NCBI GenBank assembly: GCA_965206745.1
Contig: OZ242220.1
Span: 1,696,001-1,760,000, forward strand
Direction: 5' to 3'
From: Nitrosopumilus sp.
GTDB lineage: Archaea > Thermoproteota > Nitrososphaeria > Nitrososphaerales > Nitrosopumilaceae
Length of the DNA stretch: 64,000 nucleotides
Shown: piece by piece, positions 9,748-46,229 of the stretch
Layout: every line of letters begins with the position of its first letter
Numbering within the stretch: the stretch's first letter is position 1
Made by a program: the position numbers and the translations under genes
The notes under the pieces: generated by a model
The model's input: the letters and a program-made list of their open reading frames with translations, nothing else
What the model was told of the DNA's origin: nothing
The model's database searches: none

Positions 9748-9859
9748 TGCAAATCAAACATTCTGAAAATATATAACAATGTCGAATGATTTGATCCTGA
9801 AGTTTGGGTGTATTGTTCAGATCACTTGTGGAAGAATTTGAGAACGCTCCAATCTGGCA

Positions 9860-9887
9860 AGTGAAACCTCCATTCAATTAAACAGTG
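9860..9887. mobile_element. MITE family B terminal fragment
   Basis: GTGAAACCTCCATTCAATTAAACAGTG is the reverse complement of the 5320 end. Confidence 0.75.
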
Positions 9888-9890
9888 TAC

Positions 9891-9917
9891 ATCTGATCAC
9901 TAATCTTGATCAGAGCC
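9891..9917. repeat. Half copy of 47-bp palindromic element (family A)
   Basis: ATCTGATCACTAATCTTGATCAGAGCC; the left arm is replaced by the MITE B end. Confidence 0.75.
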
Positions 9918-9930
9918 TATCAGTACAGAC

Positions 9931-11595: not shown

Positions 11596-11715
11596 TGCAA
11601 ATCAAACATTCTGAAAATATATAACAATGTCGAATGATTTGACCCTGAAATTTGGGAGTTTTGTCAAGTGTGTTAGACATCAAATATGGATTCTTTGAAT
11701 TCAAACTCTGAGAAT

Positions 11716-11762
11716 GGCTCGGATCATAAATGGTGATCTGATCACTAATCTTGACTAGAACC
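11716..11762. repeat. 47-bp palindromic element (family A)
   Basis: GGCTCGGATCATAAATGGTGATCTGATCACTAATCTTGACTAGAACC. Confidence 0.85.
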
Positions 11763-11867
11763 GAGTGGAACATTGTTTGACCAAGATCATGGATCAGTTA
11801 AATCAAAGCAATGATTCTAGCAGTGAATAATAGATAGCCTTTTTTTCAACCCTTCTAAGGTACTAAC

Positions 11868-12140
11868 ATGAAAAAAATAGTCGTAATTCTCATATGTTTG
11901 ACCATACCAATCCAGATACTCGTGATATCTGGAATAGTTCTAAAGGGTGCTCCTTTCTGTTATATGGGTGCTCCTCCATTACAGGAAGGTATGGCTACAA
12001 CACAGCAATATAGTTTGCAATGCTATTGGGAAATATACGCTTCTGAATCATATTTGCTTTTACCTGTAATCATAGTGACACTGCCTGTAATGTTGACAGT
12101 TTTCCTAATCCATTATGTGAAAAACCGTAGAAGAGTTTGA
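11868..12140 (+). CDS. Small 2-TM protein with Cys-bounded loop (paralog of 15553..15834)
   Basis: Two hydrophobic segments; C-terminus identical to the paralog (VFLIHYVKNRRRV). Confidence 0.75.
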   Translation: MKKIVVILICLTIPIQILVISGIVLKGAPFCYMGAPPLQEGMATTQQYSLQCYWEIYASESYLLLPVIIVTLPVMLTVFLIHYVKNRRRV

Positions 12141-12245
12141 GATTCTTTCCAGTTTTAGTTGATTGGTCATACAGAAATGGATCTTCAAATCATATGAATA
12201 ATTTTATTGCGAAATTATCAGTCAATTATATGCCTGAAGATGACT

Positions 12246-12292
12246 GGGACTCATCACAAACGGTGATCTGATCACTAATATTGACTAGAGCC
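12246..12292. repeat. 47-bp palindromic element (family A)
   Basis: GGGACTCATCACAAACGGTGATCTGATCACTAATATTGACTAGAGCC, 13 nt beyond the serpin 3 stop. Confidence 0.85.
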
Positions 12293-12305
12293 TATCAGTA
12301 TCGAC

Positions 12306-13637
12306 TTAGGATGTAGGATTCGAGATACGTCCCATAAATAGAATCATTCCGCTCTCATCATCCTGTATGACAAATAGAAATGGATGATCGGCGATGAATC
12401 TCGGTAAAGGAGGTGGGGCAGATACGATTGGAGAAACAATAATGGTAGTCACAGCTGCCGCCTCGGTGCCCTCTTCATTTACCTTTACATACGCATCATG
12501 AATTGCCTGGCTTACAAACAGATCTGCAAATCCAATGCCTGACAAATCTGCACCACCACGGGTAAAAACATCAGGCATCCCCATACTAGCTAGGGGACCG
12601 TTTAAAGAATATTTTGTCTTTGTCTCAAATTTTGGCATCGAGACTATTACCTCCTGATTCGACAGGTTATCTGTCCACTTCTGTATCTGCTGGGCAGACA
12701 AGGACTCTTCAAACTGTCTCATATCAGGATCGTCAGGCAAAATTACCAGCATGGACAGCCTGTCACCCTTGTACGGCATCTGAAGTACCTGGGCACCGTC
12801 TGAATGGATGTAGTTAAACGCACTTTTCACATTCATAAAATCTGCATTGACGCTGTCTGTGGAGTTTGTATGAAACTCTGATTTTTTTGTATCCTCCTCT
12901 GCAAACTGTGTCAACCAGGTTCCCTTGAAATAGATTGCATTGTTTATCACCATTACTGTATCTATGTGTACATCACTTTTTCTTATTACCTCGGTAATCT
13001 TGTCATTGGTTTTCTCAGCGGCCCAATCATTTATCCTCTTTACACTGCCATCCTTATCATCTCCAAAGTCCAATGTCTGTGCCCCTGCAAGGTAGGTGCT
13101 GCGTGCAATATCCAGATAGGATTCGTATGGTGCAAACCAGCCTGCCATCCACAGTGCGTTTGCCATTTCTAGTGTTGCATAGTCATCATCACGGTTCAAC
13201 GAGGATAGTGCATGGGCTGTGGTGTTTTGTCGTGCAAATGCATCTGATTCAAACCCAAAGACATCCTCCATCTGCTGCGCTGTGTCTTGTTTGGCACCCT
13301 CGTACAAAAGCGAGAATGCGACATACATGCTGGCAGGTGAGTAGAATATGTTTTTGCCTTTTTCTGCATCCAGAATTTGCTTGTAAAAGTCGACTGCAAA
13401 TTCATTGTTTGTAGAGGATATGGATTCTGGGATTGTCTGTGGTCCGTATTGTGATACGGCATCTACTGTAACTAGGGCATTTGGAGGTGGTGTTTGGCTC
13501 GGGGTAGTAGGAGACGAGGTGTCTGTCTGTGCTGTTTGGCTTGGGGCTGCAGGAGACGAGGTGTCTGTAGAACTAAACAATGCAATTGAGGCTGCAACTA
13601 GTACTGCACATATTGCAACAATGACGAGTTTATTCAC
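12306..13637 (-). CDS. Serpin 3 (predicted P1 I or V)
   Basis: Serpin motifs; RCL EEGTEAAAVTTIIVSPIVSAPPPLP. Confidence 0.97.
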   Translation of the reverse strand: MNKLVIVAICAVLVAASIALFSSTDTSSPAAPSQTAQTDTSSPTTPSQTPPPNALVTVDAVSQYGPQTIPESISSTNNEFAVDFYKQILDAEKGKNIFYSPASMYVAFSLLYEGAKQDTAQQMEDVFGFESDAFARQNTTAHALSSLNRDDDYATLEMANALWMAGWFAPYESYLDIARSTYLAGAQTLDFGDDKDGSVKRINDWAAEKTNDKITEVIRKSDVHIDTVMVINNAIYFKGTWLTQFAEEDTKKSEFHTNSTDSVNADFMNVKSAFNYIHSDGAQVLQMPYKGDRLSMLVILPDDPDMRQFEESLSAQQIQKWTDNLSNQEVIVSMPKFETKTKYSLNGPLASMGMPDVFTRGGADLSGIGFADLFVSQAIHDAYVKVNEEGTEAAAVTTIIVSPIVSAPPPLPRFIADHPFLFVIQDDESGMILFMGRISNPTS

Positions 13638-13719
13638 GATACAATCACGTATGGCTAGCGCTATATATTGTCCCCATCAGAGACTATAACCCAAAATACA
13701 TGAGAGCCTGTAGAAACAG

Positions 13720-13780
13720 GCGAGTGAGACCTCCACTCAATTAAACAATGTACATCTGATCACAGTATTTGACTAGAGCC
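13720..13780. repeat. MITE B end fused to half copy of the 47-bp element
   Basis: GAGTGAGACCTCCACTCAATTAAACAATG-TAC-ATCTGATCACAGTATTTGACTAGAGCC; same junction as 9860-9917. Confidence 0.75.
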
Positions 13781-13793
13781 TATCAGTACCGAC

Positions 13794-15107
13794 TTAGGAT
13801 GTAGGATCCGAAATTCTCCCCATGAATAGGATCATGCCGCTCTCATCATCCTGTATGACAAATAGAAATGGATGATCGGCGATGAAGGAAGGTGGTTGCG
13901 GTTGTTCTGACGTAGATTCAATAAGAAGAGCAGTTACAGCTGCTGCCTCTGTTCCTTCCTCATTTACCTTTACATAAGCACCTTGAGTTGCCTTGCTCAC
14001 AAACAGATTCCCACCTGGAGAAATTCCAATCCCTGTCAAATCCGCATCACCACTAGAAAAAACATCAGGCATTCCCATTGCAATTAGATGATCATTTAAT
14101 TGATAGTTTGTCCTTGTCTCAAATTTTGGCATCGAGACTATTACTTTCTGATTTGACAGATTATCAGTCCATTTCTGTATCTGTTGGGCAGACAGAGACT
14201 CTTCAAACTGTCTCATATCAGGATCGTCAGGCAAAATTACCAGCATGGACAGCCTGTCACCCTTGTACGGCATCTTTAGTACCTTGGCACCGTCTGAATG
14301 AGTGTAGCCAAATATATTTTCTTCATTCATAAAATCTGCATTAACACTGTCTGTGGCATCTGTATGAAACTCTGATTTTTTTGTATCCTCTTCTGCAAAC
14401 TGTATCAACCAGGTTCCCTTGAAATAGATTGCATTGTTTATCACCATTGCTGTATCATTGTTTACAGTGTTAGGTCCTATTATTTTTGGAATCTTGCCAC
14501 GAGTTTTTTCTGCCGCCCAATCATTTATTCTATCTACACTGTCAGTCTCATCTTCAAAGTCCACTGTCTGTGAATCTGCAAGGTATGTGCTTCGTGTAAT
14601 ATCAAGATAGGATTCGTATGGTGCAAACCAGTCTGCAATCCACAGTGCGTTTGCCATTTCTAGTATTGCGTAATCATCATCACGGTTCAACGAGGATAGT
14701 GCATGTGCTGTGGCGTTGTGTCGTGCAAATGCGTCTGATTCAAACCCAAAGACATCCTCTATCTGCTGTGCCGTGTTTTCTTTGGCACCCTCGTACAAAA
14801 GCGAGAATGCAACATACAAGCTGGCAGGGGAATAAAATATGTTTTTGCCTGATTCTTCATCCAGAATTTGCTTGTAAAAGTCGACTGCAAATTGATTGTT
14901 TGCAGAGGATATGGATTCTGGGATTCTCTGTGGTCCGTTCTGTGATACGGCATCTACTGTAACTAGTGCGTTTGGAGGTGCTGTTTGGCTTGGGGTAGCA
15001 GGGGATAGGGTGTCTGTCTGTGGTGTTTGGCTTGAGTCCACATAGTACAATGCAACAGTGGCAACGACTAGTACTGTACATATTGCGACAATGATGCCTT
15101 TGTTCAT
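13794..15107 (-). CDS. Serpin 4 (predicted P1-P1' T-S)
   Basis: Serpin motifs; RCL EEGTEAAAVTALLIESTSEQPQPP. Confidence 0.97.
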   Translation of the reverse strand: MNKGIIVAICTVLVVATVALYYVDSSQTPQTDTLSPATPSQTAPPNALVTVDAVSQNGPQRIPESISSANNQFAVDFYKQILDEESGKNIFYSPASLYVAFSLLYEGAKENTAQQIEDVFGFESDAFARHNATAHALSSLNRDDDYAILEMANALWIADWFAPYESYLDITRSTYLADSQTVDFEDETDSVDRINDWAAEKTRGKIPKIIGPNTVNNDTAMVINNAIYFKGTWLIQFAEEDTKKSEFHTDATDSVNADFMNEENIFGYTHSDGAKVLKMPYKGDRLSMLVILPDDPDMRQFEESLSAQQIQKWTDNLSNQKVIVSMPKFETRTNYQLNDHLIAMGMPDVFSSGDADLTGIGISPGGNLFVSKATQGAYVKVNEEGTEAAAVTALLIESTSEQPQPPSFIADHPFLFVIQDDESGMILFMGRISDPTS

Positions 15108-15204
15108 TAAACGATTACTCCATATGGCTTATGCTCGACATTGTCCCCCATCAGATATGATAACCCAAAAGATGTGTGCTCCTGCAGAAACAAACGAGGC
15201 ATCA

Positions 15205-15372
15205 ATGCAGTTATTATTTTCTTATTAAATATCAATGCAAATCAAGCATTCTGAAAATATATAAGAATGTCGAATGATTTGATCCTGAAGTTTGGGTATA
15301 CTGTTTAGATCACTTGTGGAAGAATTTGAGAACATTTCAATCTGACAAGTGAGACCTCCACTCAATTAACAG
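15205..15372 (-). pseudogene. Orphan 5' end and promoter of a deleted serpin 1/2-type gene
   Basis: Matches 9715-9885 (TTATTATTTTCTTA..CAATGCAAATCAA.CATTCTGAAAATATATAA..ATGTCGAATGATTTGATCCTGAAGTTTGGG...) with no serpin body. Confidence 0.7.
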
Positions 15373-15418
15373 AGCCTTGAAAAGATATATGTAAATATTT
15401 TCAAAAAAGAAGATAGCC

Positions 15419-15556
15419 ATGCCAAAGTTCTCGAGCCAACTTGAAGCATTAGAAATTCTAAGCGATGCTGAACTGATCAATGAATTAACACAGAGTAGTA
15501 AAGAAGCTAAAAAAGGCAGGACAGTGCCATGGAAGGAAGTAAAGATTTCTGCATGA
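15419..15556 (+). CDS. Orphan RelB/Phd-type antitoxin-like protein, 45 aa
   Basis: MPKFSSQLEALEILSDAELINELTQSSKEAKKGRTVPWKEVKISA*; the LEILSD...GR..PW.EVK pattern is typical of type II antitoxin C-termini. ATGA overlap with the next gene. Confidence 0.6.
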   Translation: MPKFSSQLEALEILSDAELINELTQSSKEAKKGRTVPWKEVKISA

Positions 15557-15834
15557 AAAATATAGGCGAAATTCTCATATGTTTAACCATACCACTCCAG
15601 ATATCCCTGATGCCGGGAATAATTCTAAGTGATGGTCCTTTCTGTTATTATGGCAGTCTTCCATCTCCATTTCCAGAGCTTTACAATATTCCCTCTGTCG
15701 AAGTTACTCTATGTTCTTGGGAAATAAGTGCCTTTTTTGAATCATATTCGGTTTTACCTGTAACTATAATAACACTGCCTGTAATGTTGGCAGTTTTCCT
15801 AATTCATTATGTGAAAAACCGTAGAAGAGTTTGA
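15553..15834 (+). CDS. Small 2-TM protein with Cys-bounded loop (paralog of 11868..12140)
   Basis: Start MKNIGEILICLTIP aligns with the paralog start. Confidence 0.75.
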   Translation: MKNIGEILICLTIPLQISLMPGIILSDGPFCYYGSLPSPFPELYNIPSVEVTLCSWEISAFFESYSVLPVTIITLPVMLAVFLIHYVKNRRRV

Positions 15835-15936
15835 GATTCTTTCCAGTCTTAGTTGATTTGTCATACAAAAATGGATCTTCAAATCATATGAATAATTTTA
15901 TTGTAAGATTACTGATCAGTGATGTGCCTGAACTGA

Positions 15937-15980
15937 AGCTCTGACAAATGGTGATCAGATCGCTGTATTTGACCAGAGCC
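15937..15980. repeat. 47-bp palindromic element (family A), 3-bp deletion
   Basis: AGCTCTGACAAATGGTGATCAGATCGCTGTATTTGACCAGAGCC, 13 nt beyond the serpin 5 stop. Confidence 0.85.
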
Positions 15981-15993
15981 TATCAGTACCGAC

Positions 15994-17589
15994 TTAGGAT
16001 GTAGGATTTGAGATTCGTCCCATGAATAGGATCATGCCGCTCTCATCATCCTGTATGACAAATAGAAATGGATGATCGGCGATGAATTTAGGTGGGGGTG
16101 GGGGGGCAGGTGATAATGAATCAGTTGTAACAATAACAGTAGTTACAGCTGCTGCCTCTGTTCCCTCTTCGTTTATCTTTACATACGCATCTTGCATTGC
16201 TTGGCTTACATACAAGTTTACAACTTCAGTGGACGCAATCCCTGACAAATCTGCAACACGACTAGAAAAAACATCAGGCATCCCCATACTAATTAGTGGA
16301 TTGTTTAAAGAATATTTTGTCTTTGTCTCAAATTTCGGAATCGAGACTATTACCTCCTGATCCCACAGGTTATCAGTCCACTTTTGTATCTGTTGGACAG
16401 ACAATGACTCTTCAAACTGTCTCATGTCAGGATCGTCAGGCAAAATTACCAGCATGGACAGCCTGTCGCCCTTGTACGGCATCTGAAGCACTTGGGCACC
16501 GTCTGAATGGGTGTAGTTAAACGCACTTCTCACATTCATAAAATCTGCATTGATGCCGTGTATGGAATTTGTATGAAACTCTGATTCCCTTGTATCCTCC
16601 TCTGCAAATTGTGTCAACCAAGTTCCCTTGAAATAGATTGCATTGTTTAGCACCATCGCTGTATCTGCGTTTACAGCTTCAGGTCCTATTATTTTTGGAA
16701 TCTTGTCACGAGTTTTTTCTGCCGCCCAATCATTTATTCTATTTACACTGTCATCCTCATCTGTAAAGTCCACTGTCTGTGCATCTGCAAGATATGAGCT
16801 TCGTGTAATATCAAGATAGGATTCGTATGGTGCAAACCAGTTCGCAATCCACAGTGCGTTTGCCATTTCTAGTGTTGTGTAATCATCATCACGGTTCAAC
16901 GAGGATAGTGCATGGGCTGTGGCGTTTTGTCGTGCAAATGCGTCTGATTCAAACCCAAAGACATCCTCCATCTGCTGTGCCGTGTTTTCTTTGGCACCCT
17001 CGTACAAAAGCGAGAATGCGACATACATGCTGGCAGGTGAGTAGAATATGTTTTTGCCTTTTTCTGCATCCAGAATTTGCTTGTAAAAGTCGACTGCAAA
17101 TTGATTGTTTGCAGAGGATGTGGATTCTGGGATTCTCTGTGGTCCGTTCTGTGATACGGCATCTACTGTAACTAGGGCGTTTGGAGGTGCTGTTTGGCTT
17201 GGGGTAGTAGGAGACGAGGTGTCTGTCTGTGGTGTTTGGCTTGGGGTAGTAGGAGACGAGGTGTCTGTCTGGGGTGTTTGGCTTGGGGCAGTAGGAGACG
17301 AGGTGTCTGTCTGTGGTGTTTGGCTTGGGGTAGTAGGAGACGAGGTGTCTGTCTGTGGTGTTTGGCTTGGGGTAGTAGGAGACGAGGTGTCTGTCTGGGG
17401 TGTTTGGCTTGGGGCAGTAGGAGACGAGGTGTCTGTCTGTGGTGTTTGGCTTGGGGTAGTAGGAGACGAGGTGTCTGTCTGGGGTGTTTGGCTTGGGGCA
17501 GTAGGAGACGAGGTGTCTGTAGAACTAAACAATGCAATCGAGGCTACAACTAGTACCGCACATATTGCGACAATGACTAGTTTATTCAC
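15994..17589 (-). CDS. Serpin 5 with long Ser/Thr/Pro stalk (predicted P1-P1' D-S)
   Basis: Serpin motifs; RCL EEGTEAAAVTTVIVTTDSLSPAPPPPP. Confidence 0.97.
   Translation of the reverse strand: MNKLVIVAICAVLVVASIALFSSTDTSSPTAPSQTPQTDTSSPTTPSQTPQTDTSSPTAPSQTPQTDTSSPTTPSQTPQTDTSSPTTPSQTPQTDTSSPTAPSQTPQTDTSSPTTPSQTPQTDTSSPTTPSQTAPPNALVTVDAVSQNGPQRIPESTSSANNQFAVDFYKQILDAEKGKNIFYSPASMYVAFSLLYEGAKENTAQQMEDVFGFESDAFARQNATAHALSSLNRDDDYTTLEMANALWIANWFAPYESYLDITRSSYLADAQTVDFTDEDDSVNRINDWAAEKTRDKIPKIIGPEAVNADTAMVLNNAIYFKGTWLTQFAEEDTRESEFHTNSIHGINADFMNVRSAFNYTHSDGAQVLQMPYKGDRLSMLVILPDDPDMRQFEESLSVQQIQKWTDNLWDQEVIVSIPKFETKTKYSLNNPLISMGMPDVFSSRVADLSGIASTEVVNLYVSQAMQDAYVKINEEGTEAAAVTTVIVTTDSLSPAPPPPPKFIADHPFLFVIQDDESGMILFMGRISNPTS
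17190..17520. repeat. Coding 39-bp VNTR, about 8.5 copies (QTDTSSPTT/APSQTP)
   Basis: Tandem GGTGTTTGGCTTGGGGTAGTAGGAGACGAGGTGTCTGTC units with no spacers. Confidence 0.95.
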
Positions 17590-17957: not shown

Positions 17958-20543
17958 TCACAACTTGTATACTGTCACACCGCCGTTCTTGTTCCTTCTC
18001 ACGCCGAGACTGCGACGTTTAAGCTCCTCACAGATTTCATCGTACCCCTCAAAGTTCTCATCCTCTAACAATATCTTTAATGCCACGACATTAGAGTTTG
18101 CGTACTTGCCTGCAATGGTATCATCAGGTTTTGTATCATCAGGTTTTGTATCATCAGGTTTTGTATCATCAGGTTTTGTATCATCAGGTTTTGTATCATC
18201 AGGTTTTGTATCATCAGGTTTTGTATCATCAGGTTTTGTATCATCAGGTTTTGTATCATCAGGCTTTACATCAGATGTCTTTGCATAAGCAGACTTTGCA
18301 ACCACATCAAAAGGCCTCCCCTCCAAGGTCCCGTCCTCCCTCACAATGGATCCCAGGCATGCCAGCACCTGGGAGGCAGTAAGGCTTGGCCGGTCTACAA
18401 TCCCCTGCAGCGATGCATGCCCCACATCAGTATTCAAACCATCGATACTGCCAGAAGACTCTGACACATTGCAGAACCGCTTATCGTTTTGGATATCTAT
18501 GCTCTTTGGATCAACTACTATCAAGTCGTATGACTCGGCAGCAATGTTCTTCTCTGCCAGTGCATCAATGATGTACTGCTTGTGCTTTTGTGAGAACACC
18601 ACAAACCACACCCTCATGTCCCGCGAGGCGCTCTTTTCATAGTTGATTATTATCTGCCCCCGGTGCTTCATCGGATCGGTCTCCACCTCGACTGCAGTAA
18701 CATTCTCAGACCACAGTACGGGATTGACCATCTGCTGTTTTGTGACACCCTTGTCATCAAGGGGCTGGAACTCGTATACAAGCAGGTCTGCCCTCGGCCC
18801 GTAGGTGTCAGCCAGGTCGGGGATGCAGTAGTGGAACTGTGCAGTGTTCCTGTCTGCAATGGCAGAGATGACCCCAGTGTGCAATTCACTGCCTGCACTG
18901 GCACCGGCATACGCACGAGAGTAGATGAGGTTTATTGCCTTCTTTGTGATTGCAAATGACGCACTGGTGTCATACTGGTGCCAGCCCTCGCGATAGTCGA
19001 TGCTCCTCACCACAAACTTGTAGTGTGACAGCAGAGAATTGATCAGCGCCCGGACCACCTCCCTCTCATCTACTCCAAACTTTGCAATTCCTGCAGCTAC
19101 AAGTTCGCCGTGGTTGATCTCCCGCTTTTCCAGATATAACATGTTTAGCAAAAAGTACTCAAGCGGAGAAAGTTTTGGCATCATTGAGGACTTTACTGAC
19201 GAGAAAGAGTCGGCATGGACTGCCTTGCCGTACCTCTGCAGGCTCTTTCTTGCAACCTCCTCCCACCTCGAGGGCGTCTTGATGTACCGCGTCATGCCGA
19301 TTCCAGATATTCTCTCAACTCCCTGCGAGAAGGCGGCAAACCTGTGAAACCCGAGGTGCGCAAGCTGTCTCTCATCAAGCGGCAGGTTCCGTGCAAGCAG
19401 CCGCGCAGTGTCAAAGTCGCACCGGAACATCACCATGCAGCGAAATAAATCGTCAAGCTCCCTTGCAAGATCATCATCAAGTACTTTAACTGACTGGGTG
19501 GCAACTGTCACCTTCATGTTGTACTTTCTGACGCTGTTTAGCAGCTCACGGATGACGGGTGCTGAGAACATGTGTACCTCGTCGATGTATATGTTAAATG
19601 GGGTCCTCTCAGAGTCGCCAAGGTCAAAGCGGATCTTGTTCTCCAGGTTGAACATGTTGATAAGCAGCGTGCCGACAAACTCTATAATGTCAGTGGTTGC
19701 AGCAGAGCCGAGGTCAACTATTACAATCTTTCCCCCCTCGATTGCATCCCTAATTGATACTGTAGATTCGGCAGAGGAGAAGAGGGCAGCAATTGGGGGC
19801 GTGTTGATTATCTTGTCAAACTTGTTGTATATTGCGCCTGCAGCTTCTGGTGCAAACCTTGGAAACACGTTTGTCCAGAAGTTCCTCACAGTCGGAAGCG
19901 GGCACTTTTGCAGCGCGCGGTTCCTTGCGTTGACATCAAAGAGGACGGAGATTATATCGAGGAACCTAAAGGTCTCAGGGGTCGACATTACCAGGTTTAT
20001 CATGTTGCGCAGGATTGTCTCCAGCCTGTGGCCCCAGCCGTCTGTAAAGTACTGCTTGAGGTTGTCGATGCATCCTGCAGTCCTGATGTACTTTTCGTGC
20101 TCAGTCCTAGTCTGCAGTGGGTTGATGCAGACAGTCCTCTCAAACTGGTATATCGATGCAAGCGATATGTAGACTACCTTATCCTGCATGTCCTCTGGGA
20201 TCATCGAGAGGACCTCCCTGCTAAAGTCCCTGTGGGGATCAATTAGCAGAAATCCCGTCTTGCGGATTATATCCTGCATTATGAGCATCCGCATCACAGA
20301 GGTCTTGCCTGAACCAATCTCGCCAAATATTCCAATGTTCTGGCGGTCATCCTCTGGAATCACAAATGTCTGGCTGCCTGTCTCCTCGATATACCCAAGG
20401 GCTGTCATCTGCCTGCCTGCGTGCTTTGGAGTGTCAGATAGAAAAGATTCAGAGTCCTGCGGTCTATGATATCTGGCAAGCAGCACATAACACACTGCTG
20501 CCAGGCAGACTCCAATGTACAGCAGTACATCCCACGGACTCAA
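17958..20543 (-). CDS. VirD4/TraD/TrwB-like P-loop ATPase with C-terminal PD-(D/E)xK-like domain
   Basis: N-terminal TM; Walker A GEIGSGKT; LLIDPH; INPL; Walker B IYIDEVH; RKY...ATQS. C-terminus has H...RADLLV...AVEVET. Confidence 0.85.
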   Translation of the reverse strand: MSPWDVLLYIGVCLAAVCYVLLARYHRPQDSESFLSDTPKHAGRQMTALGYIEETGSQTFVIPEDDRQNIGIFGEIGSGKTSVMRMLIMQDIIRKTGFLLIDPHRDFSREVLSMIPEDMQDKVVYISLASIYQFERTVCINPLQTRTEHEKYIRTAGCIDNLKQYFTDGWGHRLETILRNMINLVMSTPETFRFLDIISVLFDVNARNRALQKCPLPTVRNFWTNVFPRFAPEAAGAIYNKFDKIINTPPIAALFSSAESTVSIRDAIEGGKIVIVDLGSAATTDIIEFVGTLLINMFNLENKIRFDLGDSERTPFNIYIDEVHMFSAPVIRELLNSVRKYNMKVTVATQSVKVLDDDLARELDDLFRCMVMFRCDFDTARLLARNLPLDERQLAHLGFHRFAAFSQGVERISGIGMTRYIKTPSRWEEVARKSLQRYGKAVHADSFSSVKSSMMPKLSPLEYFLLNMLYLEKREINHGELVAAGIAKFGVDEREVVRALINSLLSHYKFVVRSIDYREGWHQYDTSASFAITKKAINLIYSRAYAGASAGSELHTGVISAIADRNTAQFHYCIPDLADTYGPRADLLVYEFQPLDDKGVTKQQMVNPVLWSENVTAVEVETDPMKHRGQIIINYEKSASRDMRVWFVVFSQKHKQYIIDALAEKNIAAESYDLIVVDPKSIDIQNDKRFCNVSESSGSIDGLNTDVGHASLQGIVDRPSLTASQVLACLGSIVREDGTLEGRPFDVVAKSAYAKTSDVKPDDTKPDDTKPDDTKPDDTKPDDTKPDDTKPDDTKPDDTKPDDTKPDDTIAGKYANSNVVALKILLEDENFEGYDEICEELKRRSLGVRRNKNGGVTVYKL
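18118..18267. repeat. Coding 15-bp VNTR x10 (DDTKP)
   Basis: Tandem GTATCATCAGGTTTT. Confidence 0.95.
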
Positions 20544-20983
20544 AACGTCGACTCTATCTCCACGATATCTGCATCATGCTTTTTTAATATCTCAAAGGCA
20601 GAGTCGGTAATCCGGATGTACCGGCACGAGCATTTTTCTGCAAGGTTGAGCTTTTTCAGGCTTGTCATGCACATTGACATGTAGTTGCTTGACTTTTTTG
20701 TAAACAGAAACAGAAAGAGGTCCTGTGATGCAGGCATGTGGTTGCTTGCAGACTGCATGCACTTGTGGCAGTACAATATTGCAAGTATCTTAAATGACAG
20801 AATGGGGATGCCAAGCATATCAGAGTAGATGAGCATCTTTCCCTTTACGGTAAGCGAGCAGTCAGCACGTATGAATCCCAGCCGCTTTAGCTGCTTCTTC
20901 TGCTGGTAGTGGCATGCCTCCCCCCGATGTAGCATTTGCAGTGCCATAAAGTTCATCGAATTGTCCCGGGAGCGGTTAGCCAT
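20540..20983 (-). CDS. Hypothetical protein, wHTH-like
   Basis: Likely start MANRSRD overlaps the upstream stop. LKRLGFI...LTVKG and LKKLNLAE...IRITDSA resemble winged-helix wings. Confidence 0.55.
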   Translation of the reverse strand: MANRSRDNSMNFMALQMLHRGEACHYQQKKQLKRLGFIRADCSLTVKGKMLIYSDMLGIPILSFKILAILYCHKCMQSASNHMPASQDLFLFLFTKKSSNYMSMCMTSLKKLNLAEKCSCRYIRITDSAFEILKKHDADIVEIESTF

Positions 20984-21794
20984 CTGCACCACCAAACATC
21001 TCTGAGAAAAAGCCGGCAGGGTCCTCCATGGTGCCGCGTACATTTGAGAATGTCTTTTCAGCTCCGGACTCCATGGCGAGGCCAAACATGGAATGCGGCA
21101 GCGAGAGTATTGATGCCAGTTCCACTATGGAGAGTACCGGTGTCCTGGTGCTGCCAAGCCAGGGCAGTCTGGGAAGGCAGTCAAGTGCAAGCTTTCTCCC
21201 GTACTTTGGAACCAGCCCGTTGGGCTCTGAGAGTCTGTTTGTAAAGTTTATGCTGGAGAGAAGCGACGGGGCATCCTCCTTGTTGCAGGCAAAGAAGACA
21301 TTAGATACGAAAAAAGAGTTCTGCTCTAGCTTCCACTCTACTGGCTTGCTCATATCTGCCTGCGGGGCAGTCTTGTTGTAGATCCTCTCAAGGAACGACT
21401 TTGCCCTCTTTCGTATGATCCTCGGATCAATCCTCCTTCCAATTATACCAAACGTAAAGTCAGAGAGCAGCGATGACTGCTCGTATATCTTGCAGGTCTG
21501 CGGCGTGACGCACAGCGGGTGTATGTGGTCGTTTCGCAGTCTCATGGGGATGACGCGCGACGGCATGCCCATATCATCACATACAGCAGAGGTAACATCA
21601 GGCAGCCCGGTGATGTGGTGTGATTCTGACTCTGCAGCACCTAGGTAGAGTGACAGCGCAGAGTCCCTCTTTGAGAGGATGATTCCGACTGAATCCAGCG
21701 AGGAGAGCAGCGAGATGAATTTTTCGGACTCTTCATCCTCAAAGTCGGGCCTCGGTCTTGACTCGTGCCAGATCATCTCAACACCTGATAACAC
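20976..21794 (-). CDS. Hypothetical protein resembling the N-terminal region often fused to TraD-like ATPases
   Basis: VLSIVELASILSLPH motif near the C-terminus; operonic with the ATPase. Confidence 0.55.
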   Translation of the reverse strand: MLSGVEMIWHESRPRPDFEDEESEKFISLLSSLDSVGIILSKRDSALSLYLGAAESESHHITGLPDVTSAVCDDMGMPSRVIPMRLRNDHIHPLCVTPQTCKIYEQSSLLSDFTFGIIGRRIDPRIIRKRAKSFLERIYNKTAPQADMSKPVEWKLEQNSFFVSNVFFACNKEDAPSLLSSINFTNRLSEPNGLVPKYGRKLALDCLPRLPWLGSTRTPVLSIVELASILSLPHSMFGLAMESGAEKTFSNVRGTMEDPAGFFSEMFGGADG

Positions 21795-22439
21795 TCAGAG
21801 TATCACGTGCTGATAGAACAGCAGCATGACGGTGATTAATGACGCATACACGTAGGTGAGAATCGGAATCGAGGGAATCACATACTTGCACTGGCGGGAA
21901 TGGTCCATCCTCTTTCCCCTCATGCCCGAGTTAATATCAAAGACAAGCGTGTTCTCATCTGCCAGTACGGCAGGATACGCAAACCTGTCAAGTATCCCCC
22001 TTTTCTTGCACGATATCATTGCAAGTACCTTCATCATTCCAGATGAGTTGACATCGGGGAACGGATCACGCCGCAGATTTGTAGCAAGGCAGACAGTCAG
22101 GTGGTTGAGTACGGATACTGCAAATCCCAAGAGTACAGATAGCACTGCAAGGTGGATTCCAAACGGAAGCAGAAATGCAAAGCACGCAGAGGTGCACAGC
22201 CAGTCAGATATCTTGAAGAGTCCGCCTGCCCTTGCAACCCCGAGCATTGCAGTTACGGTACATGCAAATCCGAGCATGCCAAGTTCATCAGATGTATAGA
22301 GATGAATTACAGACAATACCCCAAGCAGTAACACAAGATAGTTTTGGATTTTACGGTATCGCAGTTCCTGGTATGACACCATACCAAAGACGGCAAGAAA
22401 CGGTACCAGTAAAATTACAGAGGATAGTATTTCAGGCAA
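21795..22439 (-). CDS. A24-family prepilin peptidase-like protein (atypical catalytic motifs)
   Basis: Multi-TM. SYQELRYRKIQN corresponds to the D-l-k-r-I-n motif with D changed to E; LFKISD sits at the GxGD position; C-terminal IPSIPILTY. Confidence 0.65.
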   Translation of the reverse strand: MPEILSSVILLVPFLAVFGMVSYQELRYRKIQNYLVLLLGVLSVIHLYTSDELGMLGFACTVTAMLGVARAGGLFKISDWLCTSACFAFLLPFGIHLAVLSVLLGFAVSVLNHLTVCLATNLRRDPFPDVNSSGMMKVLAMISCKKRGILDRFAYPAVLADENTLVFDINSGMRGKRMDHSRQCKYVIPSIPILTYVYASLITVMLLFYQHVIL

Positions 22440-22444
22440 CAGTA

Positions 22445-23422
22445 CTATTGTACGGGTTTCTTGTCGAGTCGCACCAGAAGGAAGGGACCGTCAATTTTCA
22501 GATCCTCCAACTCTGCAACGTCCTCGTGCTTTGAGAAATGCAGCGCATCATCCCTGGTCAGTGCCCCGAGGAACTTGGCATACTTTGGCGGAACAGAATG
22601 TGCCGCATTTCCGAACCTGTCCCTTACGACAAGGCATCCGTCCTCCTCCTCGAATCGGCATATCTGGTCATTAATCACCCCGTATGACGTGCCGCACTTG
22701 ATGCAATCAAAGCTCGGCGTCCCCTTTGAGACTGACCCGCGCGTCTTGGGCTTGGGCTTTTTGACCCCCAGTAATAGCTTGAAGAGGTGCATGTCAGGCC
22801 AGGTGAAATATTTCTGCTTTAGTTCCTCGCACAGATAGCGCGTCTTCACTATTGCCTGCCTCTGGACATCCCCGTCAAGCTTTGATAGGGAGGTAAAAAA
22901 CGACAGCGGAGGCCCTATCCTTATGCCCATCTCAAAGATGGAATCAATTAGCTCTGCAAGAAGCAGTTCAGTCGCCGAGTCAAACTCTGTCTCCAGCACG
23001 CGCTCAAGGTAGGGATTCATCCTCAGTTCCTGCGCTTTAGGCGAGATGTGACGCAGCGCCATCTTTGCGCGCATGGGGTTGGCCATCGGCTTGGATATTG
23101 AGAGCTGCAGGTGCGTCAGGACGGGGTCCTTTCTGCCCAGGTGAACTGCGTTGATTCTTGGAATCTTTGCAATCCTTGCGGCATCCAGTACCTCGATGTT
23201 GTCCACCGCTACAAAGCCCCCCTCGCCGCTTACTACCGTAACATGGTACTGGGTGAAGGTCTTTGCCATCTTTGATGCAATGTGGTCAATCTCATATCGG
23301 GGAGTGACAGAGACCATCACCTTTGGCCTGCTTACAAGCAGGGTGTCAACCTTTAGCAGCTTCAACTGGCATCGACTCCGATGTACTCTATGATGTCGAC
23401 TGCAGTCTTTACAGAATCGCAC
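22445..23422 (-). CDS. Hypothetical protein with Zn-binding motifs
   Basis: CKDC..H..H..C at the N-terminus and CIKCG internally; operonic. Confidence 0.6.
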   Translation of the reverse strand: MRFCKDCSRHHRVHRSRCQLKLLKVDTLLVSRPKVMVSVTPRYEIDHIASKMAKTFTQYHVTVVSGEGGFVAVDNIEVLDAARIAKIPRINAVHLGRKDPVLTHLQLSISKPMANPMRAKMALRHISPKAQELRMNPYLERVLETEFDSATELLLAELIDSIFEMGIRIGPPLSFFTSLSKLDGDVQRQAIVKTRYLCEELKQKYFTWPDMHLFKLLLGVKKPKPKTRGSVSKGTPSFDCIKCGTSYGVINDQICRFEEEDGCLVVRDRFGNAAHSVPPKYAKFLGALTRDDALHFSKHEDVAELEDLKIDGPFLLVRLDKKPVQ

Positions 23423-24021
23423 TTGGATGAGAGTCTAAGTGCTGCCCTTCTCCAGGCCTCCGAGTTGATCCTCTTGAGGTTCGAATCATCTGTGGGTTTT
23501 GTACTTGCAAGGTGTATCTTTTTTGCAGAGTCAAGCAGCACTGACTCTGCGACAAATATTGCATTCTTTGGCTTGATTGGTCGTTTCAGTGAGAAGGACT
23601 TTTGGATTGCAAGTATGATGGTGTCGTTGTCAGTACTGATGTCATTCTCCCTGCATGTCTGCCATACGCTAAAGAATGCAACGATTGCAATCGGGGTCTT
23701 TTTTGTACTGCGTATGGCATGGAACAGGTAGATTGCGCGCCTTGTAAGGTTGCGGTTAATCGAGAGTGCGGCGCAGCAGTCAAAGAGCTTCTTCTCGTAC
23801 GGGTTCCTCCTTGACTCAAGTATGTTCCTGTACCTTCTCGAACGCAGTATGGATCGCGGGGATATGTCTGCGCTGCCTACCCTTGACTCGTCGCACGGTA
23901 TCACCTTGCTCTTTGTGGGGACGGGATCAGGCTCTATGATCTGATCGTGTATCACGCCGCATCCGGAGCAGACGAGATCAATGCCGGCATGAACCAGTCT
24001 CTTGTTTGAACAGCAGTCCAT
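23362..24021 (-). CDS. Truncated TFIIB/TFB-like protein (Zn ribbon plus a single cyclin repeat)
   Basis: MDCC...DLVCSGCGVIHD Zn ribbon; CAALSINRNLTRRAIYLF...IVAFFSVWQTCRE matches the first cyclin repeat; no second repeat. Confidence 0.75.
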   Translation of the reverse strand: MDCCSNKRLVHAGIDLVCSGCGVIHDQIIEPDPVPTKSKVIPCDESRVGSADISPRSILRSRRYRNILESRRNPYEKKLFDCCAALSINRNLTRRAIYLFHAIRSTKKTPIAIVAFFSVWQTCRENDISTDNDTIILAIQKSFSLKRPIKPKNAIFVAESVLLDSAKKIHLASTKPTDDSNLKRINSEAWRRAALRLSSKCDSVKTAVDIIEYIGVDAS

Positions 24022-24025
24022 GTCT

Positions 24026-24565
24026 TTACCGTAGTTGGGATCCCCTGATGTCAGCAGAGTCGTTTGCAGGTATTGACATACGGCAAACAATGCTTGCAGG
24101 TCTAGAAGGGAGGGCATTGCTTTGAGCCATCACGCAGATGTACCCAAGGCCATGCGTGCCTGCTGCAGCATTAATGATTCCACCACATGTGTTACTTGCC
24201 CGCAGGTACGCACAAAGTCCTGCCAGTGTACAGATAACGGTACCAAGGATGCAGTGCTGGATGGCCAGGCTCTCTGTGCCAACAGTACTTTGACGACACT
24301 GCATGAGACAATTAGCAAGATGTGTAAAATTCAGGACAGTCTTGTACAAGTCATATTTTGTGCTTGGGACATACGCGCTTGCAGATAAATCGGATTCTGT
24401 CTTGCAGTCTAGGAGGGATCGGCATGCTGCAAGGTATACGGCAGTCTCTGCCCTGGAACAGTCTTTCCTTGTCAAAAGAAAAGGAGGTGTGGATTTTGCA
24501 GACTCCTCTGATGTACCTGTACATCGACGTGTGAGATTTGGATTCCACATAAAGTTAGCTTGCAT
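24026..24565 (-). CDS. Hypothetical Cys-rich protein
   Basis: The frame fills the gap between the RHH gene (11-nt overlap) and the TFB start (4-nt gap); no recognisable motif. Confidence 0.35.
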   Translation of the reverse strand: MQANFMWNPNLTRRCTGTSEESAKSTPPFLLTRKDCSRAETAVYLAACRSLLDCKTESDLSASAYVPSTKYDLYKTVLNFTHLANCLMQCRQSTVGTESLAIQHCILGTVICTLAGLCAYLRASNTCGGIINAAAGTHGLGYICVMAQSNALPSRPASIVCRMSIPANDSADIRGSQLR

Positions 24566-24725
24566 TGATTGCTGCCTCCCTTTGTAGATTCCTGTTGGCG
24601 TACTCACGATCAATTAGTCGATGCAGGTATCTTGTGGCAGACCTGTCGTCAAAATCAGCTAGTTCGTGCAGTTTCTGCAGGTGTTCTTTGTCCAGTGATG
24701 CGGTTGTCAATTCTTGAACATCCAT
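24555..24725 (-). CDS. Ribbon-helix-helix (CopG-like) regulator, 56 aa (below ORF-track cutoff)
   Basis: MDVQELTTASLDKEHLQKLHELADFDDRSATRYLHRLIDREYANRNLQREAAINAS*; TATA-like AATAATATAA about 25 nt upstream. Confidence 0.7.
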   Translation of the reverse strand: MDVQELTTASLDKEHLQKLHELADFDDRSATRYLHRLIDREYANRNLQREAAINAS

Positions 24726-25251
24726 GCACTAGTATACGGCGTTCAGAGTTATATTATTTCTCAAGTATATTTCTAAACCAAAAGTCAAAAGAAGCTAATA
24801 CATGAATAACTCATGAGGATTCATGGATCCCGTGAAAAACATCATTCACAGTTGATATCAGGGGAGATGCACATGCAAGTATCGCAGGATTCAAGCAAGA
24901 AGACACTGGTACAAGTTTGTAATGTCATGTATAGGTAGACTAGAGATATAGATTCTCTAAAAAGAATTGCACTGAAGCTGAGGATGACGATGTTTTGTGA
25001 TGATACATTTGCAGGGAACAGGATTCATCAAAGTTACAATACGGAGGCTTTGGTGTCATTGATGGAAAAACAACTGCAAGCATGTGTCCGGTGCTGCTCT
25101 TCTAGTTTACAAAATTAAAAAACAATGCAGAGAGGATTTGATCCGGGAATCAACGACGGTCTTGCAGATGCAGAAAACTTCAAGAGCGCATCACTTGACT
25201 CAACGATACAGTAGGATCCGAATTCAAGTATGGATGGTTTTGTATTTTAGT

Positions 25252-25330
25252 GGTTTGCTGCATGACATGCCTAGACCACAGAGAGATCAAACGAGTTATC
25301 ATGCCGAAAATTTGAATCATGCAACAAAGC
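25252..25330. mobile_element. About 79-bp MITE with IS903-like ends
   Basis: GGTTTGCTGCATGAC ... AATCATGCAACAAAGC resembles the TIRs of the 61571-62604 IS. Confidence 0.55.
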
Positions 25331-25511
25331 ATTTTTTGAATTTTTCCGCTCAGGATTCTCAAGATCTAGGCACAAAGATGGCGATTTTAAATGATTCTTG
25401 ATAATGTGGAATTAGCATAAAGGTTACAAGAAAGATATACAAAAGATAATTAGCAAGTCAGGATTAAAGATAGTTAAAAGAGAATGAAATAGAATTGGTA
25501 GAAGAACAATA

Positions 25512-25754
25512 ATGGAAAAACTGCAATACCTCAAGATTGAAATGAAGTCCATGAAATACAGGCCACGAACAAAAGACGATGTCTGTGCATAACTCAATAA
25601 TTGGGGAGATGGCAGGGCATCAGAACTGTTTGATTATGCAGTGGAGAATGGATACTTGGAGAAAGACTATGAGCACAAGGTGTTTGGAATATTTTGGAAG
25701 GCTACTGACAAACTTAAAGGTGCAGAATTTGAAGATTCTCCGACAAATCTGTAA
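25512..25754 (+). pseudogene. Small gene interrupted by an in-frame TAA
   Basis: MEKLQYLKIEMKSMKYRPRTKDDVCA*LNNWGDGRASELFDYAVENGYLEKD...SPTNL*. Confidence 0.4.
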
Positions 25755-25893
25755 ATCACACAGTCAATCAACTAACTCAATCTAATCATAAATTAATTTC
25801 ATGTTCGTTTGCATGTAAATGATCCTTGCAGACAGAAAAACATTTCCAAAAATCCCTCATTTTGTTTCTTTAAATCAATCTACAGCAGAATCC

Positions 25894-26009
25894 ACAGAAC
25901 AGGTCATACTGTTACATCTTGTACAGGTTTTGCAGAACAGATTGTACTGTTATGTCTTGGATATGTTTTGCAGAACAGATTGTACTGTTATGTCTTGGAT
26001 ATGTTTTGC
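25894..26009. repeat. Non-coding 38-bp tandem repeat (2 exact copies plus 1 degenerate)
   Basis: GTTTTGCAGAACAGATTGTACTGTTATGTCTTGGATAT at 25927 and 25965. Confidence 0.85.
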
Positions 26010-26109
26010 TACAAACATTAAACAGGTTTGGCCAAAGTTTTGAATCCAGTTTCAAAGTGTCAGATGTCACTCTAGCTTGTGCATGAATGTCTGTCAAGGA
26101 AAAAACATC

Positions 26110-27105
26110 TTACTCTGCCAAAGTTTGTTCACGCAGTTGGCCTATTGGTTTTGACTTCCAGAGTATCGGTGACTCTGCAACACCATCATCTCTGAGAATG
26201 TAACTGTATGGAACGCCCCCATGTACTGAGAGGGTGCCATCGTCTTGTGCAGACAGGTAGACAAACACGTCATCGCCGACCTTCCAGTCAAATCCCTTGT
26301 ACTCTGATATGACGCTGTCAGATTCATCATCGCGCGTAAATGTTAGCGTCTCTGCAGGCGTACCCTTGTAGATCCTGCCTACATCAAGCGTCCAGTCTGT
26401 GGCAGCAGAGGCAAAATCAGGGTATTTTGGATCCCTGACGGCTTTGCCGGGCACTGCCCTTACCAGCTCACCTTCCACGATGTATGCTGCACTGGCAGCT
26501 ATCTCATCTTCTGACACAGATGATATTCGCAGGGAACCGGCGTGTATCTTCTCGTCATACACCTTGTCATTTGCCGATGATCGTAATTGTCCTACTAGTT
26601 TTGAGTTCCAGGGCACATATGACTCGGCAATACCGTAATCCCTGAGGACGTAGCTGTATGGAACTCCTGCATATACTGAGTGGGTGCCATCGTCCTCTGT
26701 GGACAAGTAGACAAACACGTTGTCTCCTATTTCCCAATCAAGTCCCTCGTACTCCGTTACTGCTCTGTCAGTCTCACCGCCACTGCGCATAAACGTTAGC
26801 GTCTCTGCAGGTGCGCCCTTGTAGATATGATCCACATCAAGTGTCCAATCTGTAACAGCAGAGACAAACTCAGGATAGTTGGGACGATCAACGATTTCTC
26901 TAGATACTGCTTTTATCAGCTCACCTTCCACGATGTATGCTGCAGTGGCAGCTATGTTCTCCTCAGAACCACCGGCATATATTGATGAAGTAGTGGTATA
27001 GATTCTGTCATCATGCACCTCGTCATTGGCATATGATGATATCAACAGTGCAGACGGAATGATTGCAGCTAGTGCCACCAACGGAATAATTATCTCCCTA
27101 TTCAT
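26110..27105 (-). CDS. Secreted or anchored protein with two tandem copies of an about 150-aa beta-rich domain
   Basis: IAATAAYIVEGELIKAV...TDWTLDV..IYKG.PAETLTF...VFVYLS occurs twice; related to 34043..34657. Confidence 0.8.
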   Translation of the reverse strand: MNREIIIPLVALAAIIPSALLISSYANDEVHDDRIYTTTSSIYAGGSEENIAATAAYIVEGELIKAVSREIVDRPNYPEFVSAVTDWTLDVDHIYKGAPAETLTFMRSGGETDRAVTEYEGLDWEIGDNVFVYLSTEDDGTHSVYAGVPYSYVLRDYGIAESYVPWNSKLVGQLRSSANDKVYDEKIHAGSLRISSVSEDEIAASAAYIVEGELVRAVPGKAVRDPKYPDFASAATDWTLDVGRIYKGTPAETLTFTRDDESDSVISEYKGFDWKVGDDVFVYLSAQDDGTLSVHGGVPYSYILRDDGVAESPILWKSKPIGQLREQTLAE

Positions 27106-43723: not shown

Positions 43724-43921
43724 TACAGATTTGTAAGATCTATGGTATTAAAGCAAGGCGAAGCTAAAATCGTATGAGGTCAGATATTCAAAAAAAACTA
43801 GGCGTGAGAATGTTTCTGACAGTGTTGATTCGTGCCTGACTAAAAGGTATAGTGGACCCCATACGAAATGAGATCTCAGTTTTGCACTATGGATTTTTGT
43901 ATGCAAGTTATAATTTAACAT

Positions 43922-45940: not shown

Positions 45941-46229
45941 TACAGATTTGTAAGATCTATGGTATTAAAGCAAGGCGAAGCTAATGTATGGTCACAGTTA
46001 ATGGATCATAATGCTTGTCGATAAGATTGTGAGAACAGGCAAGCCTCATATGAAATTTCTGATCCCCCAGATTCCCAGCATCCCCAATCTCTCTTCTGGG
46101 AATGCATGGATTTGAAAATTTTGCAATGATTTTACACGTCAAATGACGGGATTTCATCCTTGAAATGTGTCTTGTAGATAACCAGCACTCTGAACCATCA
46201 GGCAGGATACTCCCCGAATACGAGGCAGG

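Follow-up and report, generated by a model that had tools for sequence, protein, structure and literature searches.

A compact, probably domesticated conjugation-type gene module of Nitrosopumilus, accompanied by a covarying structured element

What is the role of a run of minus-strand genes that places a short TFB (transcription factor B)-like protein next to a prepilin peptidase-like protein and a DNA-transfer ATPase in the chromosome of an ammonia-oxidising archaeon? We addressed this question for a block at positions 17958-24725 of a 64,000-nucleotide stretch of Nitrosopumilus sp. DNA (the window; G000:C1:1696001-1760000), drawn from a genome (G000) of 1.86 Mb that is 99.6% complete. Ammonia-oxidising archaea are abundant in the ocean and hard to manipulate genetically, and conjugation-like DNA transfer in them is, to our knowledge, known from sequence alone. 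Here, our comparisons point, with a probability of about 0.6, to an immobilised, functional conjugation apparatus that derives from an integrative and conjugative element (ICE), is split over two loci and is kept as a chromosomal module. The block would represent the control-and-coupling half of a thaumarchaeal ICE-type (type IV secretion-like) apparatus, and a distant locus of the same chromosome, termed locus B below, the other half; the ICE-derived DNA-transfer apparatus would have lost its ability to integrate and excise and was probably domesticated. The first-pass annotation had proposed a self-contained eight-gene operon of mobile-element origin, of DNA-transfer type and with its own short TFB. 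Our analysis supports that origin, type and factor and trims the operon to six colinear, selected genes (g3-g8), since the putative Cys-rich ORF (open reading frame) g2 proved non-coding and the upstream ORF g1 lies outside the conserved module. The minus-strand ORFs listed earlier within 17958-24725 were confirmed at their coordinates, and the features are assigned as follows.

24555..24725, minus strand: g1, a 56-codon ORF outside the conserved module (ORF list only)
24179..24322, minus strand: structured element, model R1, with 136 positions, 28 pairs and four helices (covariation, nucleotide conservation)
23362..24021, minus strand: g3, TFB/TFIIB-like protein, 219 aa (fold, conservation, weak sequence signals)
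22445..23422, minus strand: g4, ParB-like protein with a ParB/Srx N-domain, a helical domain and a C-terminal CxxC region (profile, fold)
21795..22439, minus strand: g5, divergent A24 (prepilin/class III signal) peptidase-like membrane protein, 214 aa (homology)
20976..21794, minus strand: g6, 272-aa protein, no family found (conserved partner upstream of VirD4-like ATPases)
20540..20983, minus strand: g7, ~147 aa, start revised to M35 of a 181-aa ORF (orthologue starts)
17958..20543, minus strand: g8, 861-aa VirD4/TraG-type coupling ATPase of the FtsK-HerA superfamily (family models, PDB match)

Along the minus strand, the module therefore reads structured element, TFB-like factor, ParB-like protein, A24-like peptidase, g6, g7 and VirD4-like ATPase, within 6.8 kb. 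Its GC content (0.497) lies above both the genome mean (0.412) and the 99th percentile of 5-kb windows (0.494). Genes g3-g8 were recovered in the same order, at 37-66% amino acid identity, in both of the other loci found (L019, OZ253552.1, and L020, DAXZ01000034.1, from metagenome-assembled Nitrosopumilus genomes), an order conservation that is far beyond chance expectation and that answers the synteny check proposed with the initial description. When the window was compared with genome G170, nonsynonymous divergence (pN) was 0.20-0.38 against a synonymous divergence (pS) of 0.72-0.82 (saturated) across g3-g8, with third-position changes in excess in all six genes. Because the order is conserved and pN is well under pS, the block is a selected unit, neither a chance run of ORFs nor a decaying one. 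These findings bear directly on the possibility, raised earlier as a refutation, that the block is simply a decaying fragment of a described ICE: the ICE derivation holds, the decay does not. An inert fragment without present function would fit the lack of a detected integrase, the non-adjacent VirB4 gene, the replaced catalytic Asp of the peptidase and the fact that g1 and g2 are not real conserved genes, but we consider it very improbable, as the selection signature extends to every one of the six genes, these genes are intact in three genomes (a masked stretch of N in L020 g4 aside), and strain variants in three further sequencing runs retain the block.

Among the block proteins, g8 is the sole one recognised by Pfam and NCBIfam, and also the sole one with a PHROGs match. 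It features a hydrophobic N-terminal segment (read from the sequence), a Walker A motif (GEIGSGKT) and a long C-terminal extension. Searched alone, g8 scores above the cut-off for AAA_10 and DUF87 and below it for TrwB_AAD_bind (E 0.0068-0.027) and TraG-D_C (E 0.008-0.027), with weak matches to SXT_TraD and CedD; at the family level, TrwB_AAD_bind matches 7/7 members and TraG-D_C 4/7, and in the PDB the highest-ranking match is DotL, a coupling protein (E 1e-6). The VirD4/TraD-like assignment made at first pass was thereby supported. A homologous ATPase in genome G009, 33-34% identical to g8 over residues 39-811, abuts a VirB4-like gene (P-loop_TraG, 9.9e-14) near a gene for a TATA-binding protein (TBP)-like protein. 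The VirD4 and VirB4 genes are ~3.5 kb apart within one cluster in G054 and occupy distant loci in G000 and G170. A separate observation within g8 is a perfect 15-nt tandem repeat (window 18118-18267) that encodes KPDDT ten times in the C-terminal part; this low-complexity motif weakly matches many unrelated ORFs in the genus.

To which known system does this gene set belong? The thaumarchaeal ICE survey of Krupovic et al. 2019 (PMC6563490) states that every thaumarchaeal ICE has a TFIIB homologue, in most cases encoded just ahead of a gene for a ParB-like protein, and that these elements also carry pilins, a prepilin peptidase and VirB4/VirD4 ATPases; their median size is 64 kb, and the NCAV2-E1/E2 elements of Abby et al. 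2018 are cited there. The gene set and the TFIIB-ParB order thus appear in that text, and the earlier view of the block as an undescribed system had to be given up. The module resembles the conjugation modules of these ICEs in its TFIIB homologue immediately upstream of a ParB-like gene, its prepilin peptidase, VirD4/TraG and VirB4 ATPases, membrane and pilin-like genes, and the absence of a relaxase. Unlike them, it lacks a detectable integrase, measures 6.8 kb against the 64-kb median, has its VirB4 half 1.33 Mb away and encodes a peptidase with Glu at a catalytic Asp position. What is new is therefore the form, namely a compact module with no integrase detected and with the VirB4, membrane and pilin-like half at a distant locus. 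Four genomes with larger ICE-type regions (G009, G154, G163 and G172) carry, on one strand, the structured element, then the TFB-like and ParB-like genes 19-38 kb further on, then VirB4, with VirD4 in the same one-strand order where it was located (G009); in 3/4 of them the element is preceded, at a distance of 4-8 kb, by a tyrosine recombinase gene with an open frame of 563-579 codons. The compact module retains the order of these regions within its 6.8 kb. Beside the VirD4/VirB4 pair of the full ICE-type region of G009, L014 6727-7284 encodes a 185-aa TBP-like ORF (PF00352, 3.3e-6), and ICE-borne TBP paralogues may be recurrent.

Locus B lies on the same contig, ~1.33 Mb from the module, at C1:381.6-391.1 kb (381661-391135, loci L039 and L040). 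It encodes a 602-aa VirB4-like ATPase (PF19044, 3.6e-11) that is 30% identical to the VirB4 of the G009 ICE, a 221-aa polytopic protein, a 167-aa TBP paralogue (PF00352, 2e-12), homologues of two further G009 ICE proteins (292 and 729 aa), and two small proteins (123 and 133 aa), each with a hydrophobic helix at its N-terminus. The latter are pilin-like, and their position at ~382-391 kb agrees with the earlier proposal that the block serves pilins encoded elsewhere. In G170, locus B also occurs as a block (VirB4 83% identical), with no TBP match and far from the G170 module; the split arrangement is shared with a second species.

The short TFB proposed at first pass corresponds to g3. Its start was set at M33 (219 aa) because its relatives, only seven among 5.8 billion clustered proteins (55-64% identity), are all ~216-233 aa long; two genome records encode such relatives. 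From the N-terminus, the protein is made up of a Cys cluster (CC-x13-CxxC), a linker that is disordered, a single cyclin repeat (~73-164) and three additional helices, and it evolves under constraint (pN 0.21 against pS 0.82). The AlphaFold2 model, built from an 8-row alignment, has a mean pLDDT (predicted local distance difference test) of 64 and reaches 70-92 over residues ~71-160. Foldseek placed TFIIB chains of Pol II pre-initiation complexes at the top of the PDB matches (E 2.4e-3), and VIA-align superposed residues 73-164 on the first cyclin repeat of TFIIB/TFB (human TFIIB 115-204, P. woesei TFB 1110-1198) with a Z of 10.7-11.7 and a root mean square deviation of 1.9-2.3 over 85-87 residues. 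In the structural comparison the call thereby held for the first cyclin repeat, and a TFB-like protein with one cyclin repeat is the best reading of g3. The cysteines C3, C4, C18 and C21 are invariant in 8/8 family sequences; the profile match of this region to the P. furiosus TFB ribbon (1pft) has an E of 0.43, and the model pLDDT there is ~48-50. A second cyclin repeat with the helix-turn-helix that reads the B recognition element was not found in g3, in which ~50 residues remain (three helices, 176-214), too few to form one, and none of the structural alignments listed extends past residue 170. At the sequence level, g3 did not reach the PF00382 (TFIIB) threshold, with no Pfam match at E <= 0.1; the 12 matches of a PF00382 scan of the genome all fall within six host TFB genes, g3 being without one. 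The TFB-like profile matched 20/151 genomes of the genus, close orthologues being confined to 3/151, and among 90 pattern matches in viral contigs it recovered 0 relatives.

A comparison with Sulfolobales had been part of the first-pass annotation, which cited the activation of Ups pili and Ced genes by TFB3. Ced and Ted are chromosomal, non-mobile conjugation derivatives with VirB4-like and VirD4-like ATPases, and in Sulfolobales they are controlled by the short TFB paralogue TFB3, as described in PMC9905601, PMC11823120 and PMC11868833. The block shares with the Ced/Ted systems of Thermoproteota (CedA/A1/A2/B, CedD) a conjugation-derived origin, VirB4-like and VirD4-like ATPases and a short TFB. 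However, g8 is not a member of the CedD family (24 bits with the NCBIfam CedD model against a cut-off of 600), and TFB3 lacks a full cyclin repeat whereas g3 keeps one, so that the comparison stands as an analogy only.

Downstream of g3, the gene taken earlier for a Zn protein encodes a ParB-like protein with a C-terminal Cys pair. A profile of eight g4 family members searched against the PDB gave ParB 4umk_A as the best match (E 0.0019, residues 22-118), and the AlphaFold2 model, with pLDDT ~71-94 over residues 21-220 and a poorly modelled C-terminal CxxC region, retrieved ParB 7bnk_B (5.6e-6), followed by Noc, KorB and Spo0J, among 23 chains at E <= 0.001. Both the ParB N-terminal domain fold and the helical DNA-binding domain are thus present in the predicted fold. 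KorB of plasmid RK2 is a ParB-family transcriptional regulator of a conjugative plasmid; g4 resembles it in the N-domain and helical-domain fold (Foldseek 7e-5 to 1e-4) and in its conjugative-element backbone setting, and differs from KorB and ParB in its C-terminal Cys pair and in one segment. There, opposite AGERRLRAS of 4umk_A, an Arg-rich stretch that we take to be the CTP-binding motif, no Arg-rich motif was found in g4, its family (9/9 sequences) having VDNIEVLDAA or VDRYDVYLAA instead. The listed GTG of g4 is probably not its true start, which would lie further downstream. In 6/7 further loci examined, a g4 homologue comes immediately after the TFB-like gene; a complex prediction for the two proteins (score 0.20, mark 0.32) provided evidence neither way.

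The next gene, g5, had been called an A24-like peptidase, and profile comparison upheld the call: hhalign of the g5 family against canonical Nitrosopumilus A24 peptidases gave an E of 1.6e-5 and a probability of 79% over 185 columns, and BLASTP aligned g5 over its full length with the peptidase of metagenome locus L031 (E 4e-5). Asp79, aligned to the second conserved Asp of A24 peptidases, is invariant in 12/12 sequences, and the gene is under purifying constraint (pN 0.21, pS 0.72, dN/dS ~0.10). TFB-like and A24 genes lie ~2-2.7 kb apart on one strand, with A24 downstream, in five further genomes. A more distant version of the module is found in metagenome loci L031 and L033, where TFB-like, 401-aa, 264-aa and A24 (PF01478, E 1.6e-5) genes follow one another. 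L031 alone continues with an opposite-strand nuclease-family gene and a 1053-aa ATPase matching TrwB, TraG-D_C and T4SS-DNA_transf; the L033 sequence stops before the corresponding position. In L031 (1053-7161) this TFB-like/A24/VirD4 module also adjoins genes of an extracellular contractile injection system (eCIS; baseplate J, gp25 and PAAR/DUF4280), which include an eCIS core domain fused to a deaminase domain.

The pairing of a TFB-like factor with a peptidase also suits another function, in which the block would be a regulator and peptidase cassette for type IV pili or surface filaments, with the TFB-like factor turning on pilus genes, the A24-like enzyme processing pilins and the ATPase serving a role unrelated to conjugation. 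TFIIB homologues, the single-cyclin arCOG05559 included, occur in archaeal type IV pilus loci, as described by Makarova et al. 2016 (PMC4858521). By that description, to which our comparison is confined, arCOG05559 (Pyrobaculum/Thermoproteus, T4P-like subclade 4D) resembles g3 in its single cyclin domain, in a Zn finger that is putative in g3, and in an operon that also encodes a membrane protein and a secretion-type ATPase, and differs in its phylum-level lineage, its VirB11-type ATPase and RPB8, and the lack of ParB, A24 and VirD4. Moreover, the Nitrosopumilus genome encodes two T2SSE/FlaI-type ATPases and no other A24 peptidase detectable with PF01478, so that g5 could be its only class III signal peptidase candidate. 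Nevertheless, we regard a pilus cassette as rather improbable, given that the g8 family fits the coupling-protein models and DotL, that its G009 homologue adjoins VirB4, and that most of the genus lacks the block, 61/151 genomes having PF01478 peptidases without it.

The two genes between the peptidase and the ATPase are conserved and presently carry no family name. The orthologues of the 272-aa g6 in L019 and L020 are 55-58% identical, and the full length of g6 aligns with 288-aa ORFs that immediately precede the ATPase gene in two genomes of another family, G044 and G059. A Pfam search with five members and a PDB profile search returned nothing usable for g6, and the atlas only unnamed clusters, plus a DUF8128 lead covering 39% of one cluster. 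For g7, whose orthologues are 37-39% identical and which bears a coding signature, the winged helix-turn-helix assignment dissolved into sub-threshold leads (atlas scores at most 0.88, below 0.9). The ribbon-helix-helix protein proposed for g1 found no family, structure or homologue match: there was none in Pfam or NCBIfam, none by tblastn in L019/L020, none in the PDB below E 1, and 0/5 relevant genomes held a homologue. An AT-rich, TATA-like stretch lies ~26-35 nt upstream of the g1 ATG.

What, then, occupies the space between g1 and g3? The Cys-rich ORF drawn there (24026-24613) is not protein-coding and carries instead a covarying four-helix element, the most novel item of the block, located 158-301 nt upstream of the TFB-like start codon. 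In L019 and L020 the match to the g2 ORF is confined to ~50-70 residues. Across the three compact loci conservation is limited to ~140 nt at 78-80% nucleotide identity, tblastx similarity is alike in six frames, and the differences lack codon periodicity; because of this frame-independent, purely nucleotide-level conservation, g2 is not a gene. BLAST with 211 nt recovered ten genomes of the genus including G000 (E <= 3e-5, 67-83% identity), and six extra rows consist of short 19-34-nt matches at E 0.004-0.01 (in total 16/151 at E <= 0.01). The ICE proteins of these element-bearing genomes are only ~25% identical, and the element is better conserved than every neighbouring protein.

Further evidence for the structure came from covariation. 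RNAalifold on ten sequences yielded the 28 pairs in four helices, of which 13/28 show changes on both sides; 97.5% of cells pair, against a shuffle mean of 87.9% (0/500 shuffles reach 97.5%) and 30-47% in a slid-partner control. G-U cells make up 33/279 of the pair table, and the strand sense to the operon is therefore favoured. A covariance model found one copy each in 15/151 genomes of the genus, and in the non-seed matches in G086 (3e-25) and G009 (6e-17) the helices are kept through new compensatory changes. Under strict filters, no copy was found in 146 genomes that represent other genera within the order; the element was found only in Nitrosopumilus, every time beside ICE-type genes. When folded alone, the sequence did not outperform shuffled versions on either strand (z 0.38 and 0.17), and the minimum free energy fold differs from the consensus, so that the support for the structure is comparative. 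Rfam returned no match at the gathering score in the window, and none at E <= 1 in 23900-26200 and five full-ICE loci. Likewise, a full-text literature search and the main text of PMC6563490, which contains no TBP, TATA, ncRNA or non-coding, did not retrieve the element; the supplements, outside this search, may list related Nitrosopumilus elements. The element could be an RNA, in the form of a leader or small RNA, or could act as a signal on the single strand that is transferred.

An open frame of 157-199 codons, whose start overlaps the upstream stop, covers the element in the larger ICE-type regions. These frames were considered as a real protein and rejected, as changes are spread evenly over the codon positions (35/36/40) and comprise 65 non-synonymous and 9 synonymous ones. 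As a control, the ORF upstream in the same two genomes gave 39/22/76 by codon position and 43 synonymous against 52 non-synonymous changes.

Is the module still mobile? A tyrosine integrase (PF00589) was not found in the genome at E <= 0.01 (other recombinase families were not searched), and a full ICE is not detectable there; PF00589 matched in 5/5 relatives tested, the two G170 matches being near neither block. Neither a tRNA/tmRNA gene in the window nor direct repeats flanking the block were found. Reads had been suggested as a source of evidence for excision or patchy presence; the block is present, with differences at strain level, in contigs from four runs (four studies), none of which shows a joint that skips it. 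Homology with the related loci is limited to the block genes, the flanks differing even between G000 and G170. No empty site was found: synteny with G064 and G017 ends at ~28470, with nothing shared to the left of it, and the block therefore lies in a variable or rearranged region of at least 28 kb. This region contains, in the gene-poor stretch upstream of the block, three 38-nt tandem repeats (25895-26008) and, at 26110-27105, a gene whose 331-aa product is membrane-anchored and consists of two internal duplicates of ~150 aa; the related loci share neither.

Under a mobility-based alternative, the block would be a mobilisable hitch-hiker, comparable to a bacterial integrative and mobilisable element, that brings its own coupling ATPase, uses the structured element as an origin of transfer (oriT) or single-strand signal, and depends on a co-resident full ICE for the mating channel and possibly for a recombinase. 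Such a lifestyle would suit a block that is conserved while its context differs among G000, G170 and G073, whose GC is 0.50 against 0.40 in the flanks, whose element is far better conserved than the neighbouring proteins, as with cis-acting origins, and whose close TFB-like orthologues are patchy in the genus (3/151). We nonetheless find it unlikely, since the genome has no detectable full ICE or integrase that could act as lender, the VirB4 half forms a separate conserved block in G170 as well, and there are no flanking direct repeats or, in the four runs, skipping joints.

Several observations weigh against an immobilised, functional, ICE-derived apparatus and temper our confidence in it. 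The PF00589 search could have missed an atypical integrase, and independent insertion of related elements could, in place of vertical inheritance, account for the distribution, because the G000 and G170 flanks differ. No relaxase was found, and VirB6 and VirB2 gave no recognised family match. PF01478 matched neither g5 nor any other protein of the genome (E <= 0.1), and of the two positions that we take to be the catalytic Asp sites of the A24 family, 25 and 79, the first is Glu25 in g5 (motif SYQE, in 7/7 members covering it), aligned to the Asp of the canonical SIID. The peptidase may thus be inactive, because of this substitution and its score below the Pfam threshold. With respect to g3, cyclins C and K reach Z ~10-11, nearly the TFIIB level; hhalign of its family against five of six host TFBs gave an E of 0.019 and a probability of 2.4% in the first-cyclin region; and the TFB-like call leans on the shallow alignment and the low mean pLDDT of the model.

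If the block is indeed an ICE-derived apparatus kept in two halves, the family roles of its proteins suggest how it may operate. The single-cyclin TFB-like factor, together with the host TBP or a TBP paralogue, would recruit RNA polymerase to the module's own promoters, and the ParB-like protein would bind element DNA for partition or KorB-like regulation. The A24-like peptidase could mature the pilin-like proteins of locus B, and the VirD4-like hexameric ATPase and g6 may pass DNA to a channel powered by VirB4. The structured element, which invariably precedes the TFB-like gene in the same orientation, would act in cis on expression or DNA processing. All of these functional steps, including DNA movement and its direction, are extrapolated from protein families.

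A bolder version is possible, although we consider it doubtful: a lineage of Nitrosopumilus would have domesticated an ICE conjugation apparatus as a two-locus chromosomal DNA-exchange system, a mesophilic counterpart of Ced/Ted that uses orthogonal initiation factors of its own and is gated by a structured RNA of a new class. The orthogonal factors would be the single-cyclin TFB at the module (locus A) and, in G000, the TBP paralogue at locus B, and the structured RNA would be a kept piece of the ancestral integrase-proximal ICE end that moved next to the TFB gene.

A compact, integrase-less module under selection offers a small gene set with which to probe archaeal DNA exchange. It also bears on how truncated TFBs redirect archaeal transcription and on the role of an A24 peptidase with Glu for Asp, and, among archaeal conjugative elements, for which we know of no relaxase or oriT, the structured element could be the first transfer or regulatory signal acting in cis to be defined.

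Elsewhere in the window, three further gene groups were observed. On the minus strand at 8014-17589, five tandem serpin genes (PF00079, E ~1e-117 each) encode signal-anchor N-termini and variable Pro/Thr-rich repeat linkers; the last of them contains seven copies of a 42-nt unit at 17134-17553, and further serpin paralogues occur elsewhere in the genome (C1:151587-152773). At 41726-48500, also on the minus strand, three large ORFs of 665-682 aa carry MORN-variant or RHS repeats and look like an insertion relative to G064 and G017, in which the flanking genes adjoin. Finally, adjacent DUF6527 and DUF6791-ThiF (E1-like) genes are located at 62705-63941, a combination suggestive of a cassette for defence or ubiquitin-like conjugation.

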